Below are positions 43,189-46,011 of a stretch of DNA of 64,000 nucleotides, piece by piece. Location of the stretch: contig JANQPV010000004.1 of assembly GCA_028285305.1 (NCBI GenBank), positions 41,685 to 105,684 on the forward strand, in the 5' to 3' direction. Position 1 is the first letter of the stretch. The number at the start of each line of letters is the position of its first letter. The position numbers and the translations under genes were made by a program. The notes beneath the pieces were generated by a model. That model had not been told where the DNA came from and did not search any database. It worked only from the letters and a program-made list of their open reading frames with translations. This DNA is from Alphaproteobacteria bacterium. GTDB taxonomy: Bacteria > Pseudomonadota > Alphaproteobacteria > SMXP01.

Positions 43189-46011
43189 GTGGCCGATACG
43201 TATATCATCCCCTCTGAAGACGACGAAATAAACGATCTTCTAGACGACGAGGTTCATGCCACATTCGCCGATCCTGGAACGGACGCGGCGCCGACACGGC
43301 CCCAGGTCGAGAACGTCCATTATGGCGCAGCCAACGACATCGCCCCTTCGCAAGCTGGTATTCCTGCGGGCCTAACGGAAACGCCAGAGACGGAGCCTCA
43401 ACAAGACCAAACTCCGCCCCCGGATCGCCCAACGCAAGAACAGACTGGAGCGGAGCAATCCTCGACATTCGACGATGACGGGAAGAGTCCTGAGGCGAAC
43501 CCTCAGACCGATCGTTCGGATCTCAGCGGTGCACTCAGCGAGACAAACGCGATCGCACCCCAAGGCGCAAGCGAGTTGCCCGAATGGAATCAAGGACTCA
43601 CGGAACCTCCAGAAATGATTTCAAGCGGCGAGCCCGAAACAGCCGAGACGCAGTTTAAGGACATGACGGAAGATCTGAGCAATGTTCCGCTGCCGGAAGA
43701 GCGCTTGGATGCGTCCGCCCAAGAGCCGGAAGGCAGGATCTCCGATCCTGCAAACGGGTTCTTCTCCGGAACTGTTTCGGAATACAAATTTGATGTGGCG
43801 GACACGGGCCAGCTTCTTGTTACCGATTTAGTGCCGGGGCGCGACGGCCAGATTGCGCTGGATAGCACACTGGAACTCGACTTTGCGGACGGATTTTTCT
43901 CCTCTGAAGTCGGCACCCAAGGCAATGACAGGCGTCTTGTGGGCGGCGATGGACGCGAAGTGCTGGTCGGCGGCCTGGGAAACGATCGCCTCTACGGCGG
44001 CGCGGACAATGATGTCCTCGAAGGCGGTGCAGGCAGAGATAGGCTCTATGGCCAAGACGGCGCCGATGAACTCCGTGGCGGCGCAGGCAATGACATCCTT
44101 TATGTGGATGCGGACGATACCCTCATCGACGGCGGCGAGGGTGTTGACCGAGTGATCGTTCAGGACACCCGCGATTATTCTCTCGATCTGGCGGCGGCAA
44201 GTGTGGAGCGCGTGGACTCCGGCGCCGGGAATGACCGTCTGGATGCGTCGGCTTCGACGGTCAACACGACCATATTAGGCAAGGACGGCGAAGATACCTT
44301 GCTGGGCGGTGCCGCCAACGATCGGCTGTATGGCGGCGCAGACAACGATGTCTTAGAAGGCGGTGCAGGCAGAGATCGGCTCTATGGTCAAGACGGCGCC
44401 GATGAACTTCGTGGCGGCGCAGGCAACGACACCCTTTATGTAGATGCGGACGACACCCTCATTGACGGCGGTGAGGGTGTTGATCGAGTCATCGTTCAAG
44501 ACACAGACGATTTCACTCTTGATGTGGGCGCCGCGAATGTAGAACGCGTAGACGCAAACGCGGGCAACGATCGCCTAGATGCCTCAACCTCCACTGTCAA
44601 CACGACGCTGTTGGGCAAAGATGGCGAAGACGCCTTGATTGGCGGTGCAGCCAACGATCGGCTGTATGGCGGTGCCGACAATGACACGATCGAGGGCGGC
44701 GATGGCAAGGACCGACTTTATGGTCAAGCTGGCGCCGATGAGCTTCGCGGTGGGGCGGGAAACGACACCCTTTATGTAGATGCGGAAGATACGCTGATTG
44801 AAGGAGGCGAGGGTATTGACCGGGTCATCGTCCAGGACACCCAGGACTTCTCTCTCGATCTGGCGGCGGCGGGCGTAGAGCGCGTAGACTCGGGGGCAGG
44901 GAATGATCGCCTGGACGCCTCGGCCTCAACCGCCAACACGACCATATTGGGCAAGGGCGGCGAAGATGTTTTGCTGGGCGGTTTTGCCAACGACCGCTTG
45001 TATGGCGGCGCCGACAACGACACGATTTCAGGTGGAGATGGAAAGGACCGTTTGTATGGCCAAGCCGGCGCCGATGAATTGCGCGGTGGGGCCGGAAACG
45101 ACACCCTTTATGTGGATGCGGACGATACGGTGATCAATGGGGGCACGGGTGTTGACCGGGTCATTGTCCAGGACACCAGGAACTTTTCTCTCGATTTGGC
45201 CGCAGCCGAGGTGGAGCGCGTGGACTCCGGCACGGGTAATGATCGCCTGGACGCCTCGGCTTCGACCGTCAACACGACCATATTAGGCAAGGACGGCGAC
45301 GATACGTTGCTGGGTGGTTCCGCCAACGATCGGCTCTACGGGGGGGCCGATAACGACGTGATCGATGGCGGAGAGGGCAAAGACCGCTTGTATGGTCAAG
45401 CCGGCGCAGACGAACTGCGCGGTGGCGCCGGCAACGACACCCTTTATGTAGATGCGGACGATACGGTGATCGACGGCGGTACCGGAGTGGACCGGGTGAT
45501 CGTTCAAGACACAAGAGACTTTACGCTAGATGTGGCCCAAGCCAATGTGGAGCGCGTCGATGCGGGCGCGGGCAATGACCATCTGGACGCTTCCGGTGCG
45601 GCTGAAAGGACAACTCTTTTGGGCAAAGGAGGCGAAGACGTTCTTATTGGCGGCACCGCGAACGATCGCCTCTACGGCGGTGATGGCAACGACGTACTCG
45701 ACGGCGGAGCCGGAAACGACCGCATGTTGGGTGGGGCCGGCGACGACACGTTTGTCATCGCCAAAGGCGACGGGAATGATCGCGTCAACGGAGGCGCTGG
45801 CGGACAAGATACAATTGAAATGGATCCGTATTTCGTGTTTGGGAATCCGGGGTCCAGCGAGAGTTGGACGGTTGCTGTGGACGGCGGCCCCACCCATATT
45901 ATCACTGACGCAAGCGGCTTTTTGGATCTGGGTGCGGATACCTCCGGCAGGATCGACCTGGATGACGGCACGACCGTGTGGTTCGATGATATCGAGCGGA
46001 TCGAGTGGTAG
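43189..46011 (+). CDS. RTX-type calcium-binding repeat protein (hemolysin-type nonapeptide repeats) with acidic/Pro-rich N-terminal region
   Basis: Dozens of GGxGxDxL/Y nonapeptides (GGAGNDTLY, GGADNDVLE...). 940 aa. No catalytic domain recognised. Confidence 0.75.
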   Translation: MADTYIIPSEDDEINDLLDDEVHATFADPGTDAAPTRPQVENVHYGAANDIAPSQAGIPAGLTETPETEPQQDQTPPPDRPTQEQTGAEQSSTFDDDGKSPEANPQTDRSDLSGALSETNAIAPQGASELPEWNQGLTEPPEMISSGEPETAETQFKDMTEDLSNVPLPEERLDASAQEPEGRISDPANGFFSGTVSEYKFDVADTGQLLVTDLVPGRDGQIALDSTLELDFADGFFSSEVGTQGNDRRLVGGDGREVLVGGLGNDRLYGGADNDVLEGGAGRDRLYGQDGADELRGGAGNDILYVDADDTLIDGGEGVDRVIVQDTRDYSLDLAAASVERVDSGAGNDRLDASASTVNTTILGKDGEDTLLGGAANDRLYGGADNDVLEGGAGRDRLYGQDGADELRGGAGNDTLYVDADDTLIDGGEGVDRVIVQDTDDFTLDVGAANVERVDANAGNDRLDASTSTVNTTLLGKDGEDALIGGAANDRLYGGADNDTIEGGDGKDRLYGQAGADELRGGAGNDTLYVDAEDTLIEGGEGIDRVIVQDTQDFSLDLAAAGVERVDSGAGNDRLDASASTANTTILGKGGEDVLLGGFANDRLYGGADNDTISGGDGKDRLYGQAGADELRGGAGNDTLYVDADDTVINGGTGVDRVIVQDTRNFSLDLAAAEVERVDSGTGNDRLDASASTVNTTILGKDGDDTLLGGSANDRLYGGADNDVIDGGEGKDRLYGQAGADELRGGAGNDTLYVDADDTVIDGGTGVDRVIVQDTRDFTLDVAQANVERVDAGAGNDHLDASGAAERTTLLGKGGEDVLIGGTANDRLYGGDGNDVLDGGAGNDRMLGGAGDDTFVIAKGDGNDRVNGGAGGQDTIEMDPYFVFGNPGSSESWTVAVDGGPTHIITDASGFLDLGADTSGRIDLDDGTTVWFDDIERIEW
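43985..45665 (+). repeat. five diverged tandem copies of a 336-bp (112-aa) unit inside the RTX gene
   Basis: Each unit begins RLYGGADND... and ends ...LLGGAAND. The copies are clearly homologous at nucleotide level but carry many synonymous and conservative changes. Confidence 0.7.

Follow-up and report, generated by a model that had tools for sequence, protein, structure and literature searches.

A 940-residue RTX protein with a long predicted beta-roll and no type I secretion genes detected in its 64-kb surroundings

CyaA of Bordetella pertussis (PDB: 7usl, 6sus, 5cvw) contains long runs of the nonapeptide GGxGxDxUx, which form calcium (Ca)-binding beta-rolls in five separate blocks joined by linkers and are followed by a C-terminal cap and then a signal for the type I secretion system (T1SS). 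It also has enzymatic, hydrophobic pore-forming and acylated domains, and its gene is linked to cyaBDE. Unlinked RTX substrates have also been documented, namely lipA of Serratia marcescens, whose product LipA is exported by LipBCD, and apxIVA of A. pleuropneumoniae (PMC3034196). In Ruegeria pomeroyi DSS-3, an RTX-like protein with neither a signal peptide nor an adjacent T1SS operon, YP_165496 ‘PaxA’, accounts for more than half of the exoproteome (PMC2953401). A precedent for a T1SS with two ATP-binding cassette (ABC) proteins is the four-component MARTX system of Vibrio, in which RtxB, RtxD and RtxE act with TolC (PMC3034196, Linhartova review). Here we analyze a gene for a 940-residue RTX protein located in a 64-kb stretch (hereafter the window) of contig JANQPV010000004.1. 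We consider it probable that this protein is an orphan T1SS substrate which uses an unlinked exporter, probably of the two-ABC type, and which, once exported, folds to a beta-roll rod loaded with Ca and bearing an acidic disordered tail. The coordinates of the gene and its parts are given in Table 1.

The RTX character of the repeats is far beyond chance. Pfam PF00353 (HemolysinCabind) matches the protein in 15 stretches with 261.7 bits (cut-off 23; E value 1.6e-79), the best stretch beginning at residue 252. The nonapeptide is present 19 times in the strict form GGxGxDxUx and 42 times in a relaxed form, and is absent from every other open reading frame (ORF) of the window. Sub-threshold matches of the repeat region to Pfam Secretin and DrrA1-3_C, and to NCBIfam PilQ, were dismissed as repeat noise. 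The protein as a whole contains 201 Asp and Glu against 61 Lys and Arg residues, has no Cys and lacks a signal peptide; the absence of Cys and the excess of acidic residues are typical of T1SS substrates. The PF00353 motif, this composition and the predicted parallel beta-roll described below are all features of the RTX family, and the protein would be expected to bind Ca2+ and to fold in a Ca-dependent manner.

The repeats are organized at a higher level. Tandem Repeats Finder returned a period of 336 bp with 4.8 copies at positions 43981–45590 (79% matches, 0% indels, score 1641). In the protein register there are five full units of 112 residues, starting at residues 261, 373, 485, 597 and 709 (DNA 43969–45648), and then a sixth stretch that retains only four canonical nonapeptides and gives way to non-repeat sequence. 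Based on PDB sequence searches, this terminal block (residues 821–865) is the part of the protein that best matches block V of CyaA and the RTX segments of lipase and serralysin. The five units share about 77–87% pairwise identity in protein and 71–82% in DNA, the number of synonymous substitutions per site (dS) between them is 0.66–2.2, i.e., largely saturated, and the ratio of nonsynonymous to synonymous substitution (dN/dS) is 0.07–0.15. The longest exact run common to any two units is 32 nt, and the reading frame is kept throughout. The units are thus old copies under purifying selection. Such diverged units offer little substrate for homologous recombination, so a recent change in copy number looks unlikely. 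The concern can apply elsewhere in the family, for example to the relative P0011, whose units are 94–100% identical. Units also cluster by protein, with identities of 0.76–0.88 within the RTX protein versus at most 0.64 to a unit of any other protein, which indicates that each lineage expanded or homogenized its own array. Among the relatives, several have a repeat period of 112 residues and others one of 121, 129/130 or 148, the differences amounting to whole nonapeptides.

The fold was predicted with AlphaFold2 for residues 476–940, using an alignment of 54 sequences. The model has a mean predicted local distance difference test score (pLDDT) of 92.6 and a predicted template-modelling score (pTM) of 0.81. 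The beta-strands keep a spacing of 9 residues from one end of this region to the other, the supposed linkers included, and each modelled unit of 112 residues consists of 12 strands, i.e., six beta-roll turns, plus a helix of 4 residues located at the ‘(L)AAA’ segment. Since the strands run uninterrupted through the units, the 112-residue unit represents a periodic variation within one continuous beta-roll and not a block with a linker as in CyaA. The last approximately 50 residues are modelled as four strands, two of them long, which pack against the end of the roll. The results from a Foldseek search of the PDB place the RTX domain of CyaA first (7usl; E value 2.9e-9), with blocks IV–V of CyaA (6sus) reaching a template-modelling (TM) score of 0.63 normalized to the target. 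The top matches are all RTX beta-rolls, and weaker ones include RsaA, serralysins, a family I.3 lipase and a Ca-dependent antifreeze beta-helix. The PDB sequence search agrees, its best match being 7usl with 120 bits, so that CyaA is the closest solved structure by both sequence and structure. Standard beta-roll geometry gives about 4.8 Å per 18-residue turn; on this basis, residues 242–877 would form a rod of about 35 turns and about 17 nm, which may bind tens of Ca2+ ions.

Several statements of a preliminary description of this DNA, made from the sequence alone, hold up against these data. It had recognized a 940-residue protein of the RTX Ca-binding type with five diverged units of 336 bp or 112 residues, and the difference between its boundaries (43985–45665) and ours is only one of arbitrary repeat phase. 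The beta-roll that it expected from structure prediction of the 112-residue unit appears in the model, and the short non-repeat C-terminus (residues 866–940) is present. Its view that the N-terminus is acidic and probably disordered likewise agrees with the results given below. As for the 112-residue unit, a division into block and linker is not borne out, since the model shows uninterrupted beta-roll. The array had further been regarded as a hotspot for copy-number variation and assembly collapse, which does not suit copies with no more than 32 identical bases running and saturated synonymous sites.

The non-repeat C-terminus (residues 866–940) is modelled as a four-strand beta element on the last turn of the roll, with pLDDT values of 70–96. 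The terminus of the protein reads ...TVWFDDIERIEW, and its final FDDIERIEW fits the consensus of a family that has no meaningful match in Pfam, NCBIfam or the PDB sequences. The last approximately 70 residues share 30–38% pairwise identity with the C-termini of six other seed sequences (alignment A1). A profile built from these seven sequences, the RTX protein itself being one, so that membership is partly by construction, detected 889 cluster representatives at an E value of 1e-3 or less and 460 at 1e-10 or less among 1.84 billion representatives. Among the 154 representatives that were analyzed, the consensus ends in [IL]xF.[GD]IE[R]I[E]W, and in all but one (153) the module stops no more than 2 residues from the C-terminus of the protein. 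An extra, internal copy is present in 13 of the 154, including P0007 (residues ~470–545), P0121 and 11 others, which indicates that the module is a foldable domain that can be embedded and not merely a terminal signal peptide. The signature of the 112-residue type of unit was found in only 10 of 79 long family members; the module and the type of repeat are therefore separable.

The relatives that carry this module suggest a link to secretion. In all five that were examined (L001, L002, L003, L084 and L085), the RTX gene directly adjoins a T1SS cassette made up of a short ABC protein (549–597 residues), a long ABC protein (725–742 residues) and a HlyD-type adaptor. TIGR01843 (cut-off 208.65) matches the adaptors of L001 and L003 with 350 and 389 bits, while those of L002, L084 and L085 were assigned through precomputed Pfam HH_AprE/Beta-barrel_AprE matches. 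A TolC-like outer membrane efflux protein is encoded at two of the five loci. All four ABC proteins that were scanned, from L001 and L003, have an LssB-type T1SS model as their best match. The two LssB-like ABC proteins of a cassette differ from each other (L001 5765–9672 and L003 13633–17636, and likewise L002, L084 and L085). In the four sequences that were read, the C-loop is degenerate (LPQGFLRQ, LAGSVQQ, LPSGIKQ and LPKGFNQ versus LSGGQ), and the His residue of the H-loop is replaced in three (TQRPS, TDRPS and SQRPS), being kept only in the long ABC protein of L003 (THRPS). These degenerate C- and H-loops suggest an asymmetric, heterodimeric exporter. A literature search for two ABC transporters in connection with RTX proteins or T1SS returned nothing beyond an unrelated Rickettsia paper.

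At two of the five loci of the relatives, genes for DUF2336 proteins lie on the flanks of the RTX gene (L001 3145–4407 and 14257–15522; L002 14831–16111). Two of these proteins are fused to a response-regulator receiver domain, and the one that was scanned has a sub-threshold match to NCBIfam SpbR. They may regulate the T1SS loci of the relatives. No DUF2336 gene was found among the ORFs of the window that were scanned.

At the other end of the protein, residues 1–244 contain 11% Asp, 11% Glu, 10% Pro and 7% Gln, and have a net charge of -44. There is no hydrophobic or basic segment resembling a signal peptide at the start and no hydrophobic stretch elsewhere in this region. In a single-sequence AlphaFold2 model, which is weak but consistent evidence for disorder, residues 1–247 have pLDDT values of 31–51 and almost no secondary structure; strands begin at residue 249, and the RTX turns that follow reach 54–75 without an alignment. 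The N-terminal region is thus probably disordered. It is also probably translated, as a coding-type codon usage signal was found in the annotated frame alone (+0.24 bits/codon; the five other frames are negative). Among 5.8 billion proteins, these 244 residues have no homologue at an E value of 1e-3 or less. A short acidic/hydrophobic N-terminal motif, noted by eye in some relatives, was not upheld once the N-termini were lined up.

Based on the established model for T1SS and RTX proteins, export of the protein would be Sec-independent, and its C-terminal module of about 70 residues would be recognized by the ABC/adaptor complex. The chain would leave the cell unfolded, with its C-terminus ahead. 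Outside, in seawater rich in Ca, Ca2+ would be bound first by the C-terminal cap and then by one nonapeptide after another, and their folding to beta-roll would pull the chain out like a ratchet. The result would be one rod of about 35 turns without interruption, with an acidic disordered N-terminal tail of about 240 residues. By analogy with the relatives, the exporter would most likely combine two ABC proteins of the LssB/HlyB-like kind with a HlyD-type adaptor and a TolC-like channel. The Pfam scan revealed no enzymatic, pore-forming or adhesin domain in the RTX protein, which makes a structural or surface role (extracellular matrix, cell-surface or cation-binding) the most likely, in a host taken here to be a marine gammaproteobacterium.

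Comparison with described families sets the protein apart from most of them. With NF033943, the model for pore-forming RTX toxins, only the repeats align, and the score of 224 bits stays below the cut-off of 1000. The flanks of 183 bp and 9 bp leave no room for an adjacent acyltransferase of the HlyC/RtxC type, although distant small ORFs were not scanned for PF02794. The score for the SMc04171 family (NF046115) is 216.3 bits against a cut-off of 625. Serralysin (NF035945; 144 versus 500) and PueAB lipase (92 versus 670) are matched by the repeats alone, and no catalytic Pfam domain is present. A giant adhesin of the LapA/MpIBP type is not indicated, as PF00353 is the only Pfam domain and the N-terminus is predicted to be unstructured. 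Compared with CyaA, the protein shares the long nonapeptide runs, a predicted cap and a presumed terminal signal, but is modelled as one uninterrupted roll, has none of the enzymatic, pore-forming or acylated domains, and has no T1SS nearby. LipA and ApxIVA resemble it in the separation of substrate gene and exporter, as proposed for the RTX protein, but as enzymes or toxin-like proteins they have N-terminal domains with a function, of which the RTX protein has none.

Closer counterparts are the cadherin/VCBS-RTX proteins of metagenomes and metagenome-assembled genomes (MAGs; P0001, P0002, P0006, P0007, P0010 and P0035). They have the same ...ERIEW module, a unit of 112 (or 112 + 9n) residues at 41–56% identity, and acidic N-termini without signal peptides. 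They are, however, larger, contain cadherin-like, PA14 or laminin-G domains, and adjoin a T1SS with two ABC proteins and a HlyD-type adaptor, whereas the RTX protein has only a tail, which is probably disordered. PaxA, which is likened here by description, resembles it in having a marine host, an acidic Pro/Glu-rich repetitive region and C-terminal RTX motifs, in addition to the lack of a signal peptide and a T1SS operon (PMC2953401); it differs in being alphaproteobacterial, in having only three reported glycine-rich RTX motifs, and in its PEPEPK repeats, as opposed to an irregular acidic region. The MARTX exporter has two ABC proteins, as do the cassettes beside the relatives (PMC3034196), but the order is B-D-E versus ABC-ABC-adaptor, and the repeats and C-termini differ. 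A MARTX-like cassette is absent from the window, and the tie of that system to the RTX protein is one of family association only.

The export genes next to the RTX gene are those of an RND permease and its adaptor, as the preliminary description had stated. The permease is of the multidrug type (ACR_tran, 846 bits), is encoded on the same strand and ends 183 bp 5' of the RTX gene. The adaptor is of the RND type, with 249.5 bits against TIGR01730 (cut-off 94.9) and only 36.7 bits against the T1SS HlyD model (cut-off 208.65). The RND protein of the window shares 81–85% identity with its counterparts in marine MAGs that bear the labels Pseudomonadales, Ca. Azotimanducaceae, OM182 or Gammaproteobacteria; for Halieaceae the identity is 61–63%. 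The adaptor-RND pair is conserved in 40 related loci (L005–L044), none of which contains, within 10 kb, an RTX gene or the set of TetR, GNAT and amine oxidase genes present in the window. The adjacency of the RTX and RND genes is therefore lineage-specific and provides no evidence for a functional link. On the other side, a TetR-family gene (46021–46599, minus strand) converges on the RTX gene with 9 bp between the stop codons. It diverges from a set of GNAT, copper amine oxidase and deacetylase-like genes, and the divergent region (46598–46669) contains a near-consensus sigma-70 promoter, TTGACA-16-TATAGT, at 46642–46669. Given this arrangement, TetR more probably regulates the GNAT/amine oxidase operon than the RTX gene.

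A number of observations weigh against an orphan substrate with an unlinked exporter. No T1SS component was found in the window, either by a Pfam scan of all ORFs of at least 380 residues or by tblastn, in which T1SS ABC, adaptor and TolC-like proteins were searched against the entire window (best E value 0.096), in keeping with the statement of the preliminary description that no dedicated T1SS lies nearby; the exporter is proposed from the relatives, the search having covered the 64 kb. The connection between the module and secretion is one of association, through its position and gene neighbourhood. A promoter scan of the gap upstream of the RTX gene (43006–43188) detected no sigma-70-like promoter. 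No collection searched, species-representative genomes and JGI metagenome contigs included, yielded an orthologue of the full protein or of the N-terminal part, so conservation of this gene as such cannot be claimed. An exact-sequence look-up returned nothing on record, and the best match, with 52% identity, is confined to the repeat region. The biological role suggested above is a guess from the absence of other domains. Of the two possibilities offered by the preliminary description, a distant T1SS or a surface or Ca-binding structural role, the first is nevertheless favoured by the terminal position of the module and its T1SS neighbourhood in every relative examined. The accompanying premise that RTX proteins normally sit beside a T1SS was too strong in light of the documented unlinked substrates (PMC3034196, PMC2953401).

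Other explanations of the locus have to be considered. One is that the gene is a stranded or decaying fragment of a larger RTX adhesin, brought here by transfer or rearrangement without its T1SS, and that its product is not secreted and maybe not expressed or functional. The closest relatives are indeed larger (962–1566 residues) and have cadherin-like domains that are missing here, the N-terminus is without a homologue, related genomes have neither an orthologue nor an RTX gene at the locus, and neither a promoter-like site nor a T1SS was found. We nevertheless regard this as unlikely, because the ORF is intact over 940 codons, the units show the low dN/dS at high dS given above, the C-terminal module fits the consensus exactly at its terminal residues, the N-terminus keeps its coding signature, and efficiently secreted unlinked substrates are well documented (PMC3034196, PMC2953401). 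It is also rather improbable that the protein forms a surface-retained lattice or adhesin, S-layer-like as in RsaA, with rods on the cell surface anchored by the acidic tail via divalent cations. Although RsaA is among the Foldseek matches (6p5t; E value 3e-4), adhesin-type domains are found in the relatives, and the protein is composed of structural repeats only, the RsaA match is weak (TM 0.12–0.25) and attributable to the shared beta-roll, no folded N-terminal domain for anchoring or retention is predicted, and no genes of the LapG/LapD type or associated with S-layers were found among the window ORFs scanned.

A functional partnership with the RND pump, in which the protein is exported by the pump or acts with it, e.g., as an accessory or through co-regulation by the convergent TetR, has very little in its favour beyond the arrangement of the genes: the same strand, the short distance to the permease with no terminator detected in it, and a TetR gene abutting the 3' end. 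An RND gene is also near the T1SS cassette in L085, which was judged a coincidence. The conserved pair in the 40 related loci does without RTX or TetR, the adaptor is RND-type by score, and protein export, whether of folded or unfolded chains, is not known for RND pumps. Hardly credible at all is an artefact of assembly, by spurious duplication or collapse of the five-copy array. Tandem repeats are generally prone to such errors, but the degree of DNA identity, the short exact runs and the saturated dS show that this array is not one of them; there are no indels, the frame is kept and each unit is under purifying selection, and copies so diverged assemble unambiguously with ordinary reads. An orphan substrate of an unlinked T1SS thus continues to be the explanation that we prefer.

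Table 1. Features of the RTX gene and its upstream gap; positions are those of the window, residues (aa) those of the RTX protein.
Feature	Position	Strand	Basis
Intergenic gap, RND permease stop to RTX start (183 bp)	43006..43188	+	sequence read
Whole RTX gene	43189..46011	+	940 codons + stop
Acidic Pro/Gln/Glu/Thr-rich region (aa 1–244), probably disordered	43189..43920	+	composition, AlphaFold2
Lead-in of degenerate nonapeptides (aa 242–260; GTQGNDRRL, GGDGREVLV), start of beta-roll	43912..43968	+	motif list
Higher-order unit 1 (aa 261–372)	43969..44304	+	77–87% aa identity to other units
Higher-order unit 2 (aa 373–484)	44305..44640	+	unit alignment
Higher-order unit 3 (aa 485–596)	44641..44976	+	alignment; model with 12 beta-strands (six turns) and one 4-residue helix
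Higher-order unit 4 (aa 597–708)	44977..45312	+	alignment and model
Higher-order unit 5 (aa 709–820), most diverged of the five	45313..45648	+	alignment and model
Terminal RTX block (aa 821–865), four canonical nonapeptides and one degenerate turn	45649..45783	+	motif list, alignment
Conserved non-repeat C-terminal module (aa 866–940), ends ...VWFDDIERIEW; presumed T1SS signal and folding cap	45784..46008	+	alignment A1

The start codon of the RTX gene is a GTG located immediately 3' of an in-frame TAA, and it is the sole start codon among the first 100 codons. A Shine-Dalgarno-like GAGAGAG is present at 43177–43183, 5 nt 5' of the GTG. The gap that separates the gene from the RND permease includes a perfect 8-nt inverted repeat, TAAGAGAA-N10-TTCTCTTA, at 43036–43061, which could be an operator or an RNA hairpin. 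Scans for promoters and intrinsic terminators found none near the start or end of the RTX gene, including the interval to the permease. Transcription could be either from a promoter of its own or by read-through from the RND operon.

Elsewhere in the window, rho, mnmE and mnmG are clustered at 11743–17482 (minus strand), and the downstream ORFs at 9286–11724 fit rsmG, parA and parB by size alone; this suggests that the window is near the chromosomal replication origin. Two ORFs on the minus strand, at 36777–38594 (605 residues) and 35886–36725 (279 residues), lie 5' of the RND operon and point away from it. NCBIfam gave no match for either, and the former has a marginal Pfam SKICH match (27.2 bits) with no single stretch passing. 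No Pfam family was found at an E value of 1e-5 or less for the plus-strand ORFs at 6083–7138 (351 residues) and 57448–58518 (356 residues). Three stretches are GC-poor, 30001–32000, 6001–8000 and 16001–18000, with values of 0.453, 0.479 and 0.489, respectively, versus about 0.56 elsewhere. The first of these holds a radical-SAM ORF of 474 residues (30050–31474) and may have been acquired horizontally.

In itself, the gene encodes a routine RTX beta-roll exoprotein, and the lack of an adjoining T1SS has well-known precedents. Mildly new are the delimitation of an unannotated family of terminal modules and its consistent association with T1SS that have two ABC proteins. More tentatively, and on balance we doubt that all of it will hold, the F.(G/D)IERIEW module of about 70 residues might act as both folding cap and specific secretion signal for a distinct class of T1SS built on two different LssB-like ABC proteins, likely a heterodimer with degenerate C- and H-loops, with the RTX protein as a natural minimal substrate encoded away from its exporter. 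Were this so, the protein, in which pure beta-roll joins an acidic disordered tail to the module, would be a convenient model, or a secretion tag, for two-ABC systems. The module family, with its 889 representatives, is a candidate for a new domain model, and the module may determine which substrates heteromeric T1SS exporters accept. The RTX protein itself is a clear natural case of a beta-roll that runs very long without interruption, for about 35 turns as predicted, with a modular periodicity of 112 residues, and its array bears on the design of Ca-responsive proteins as well as on the way in which marine bacteria make abundant RTX exoproteins.

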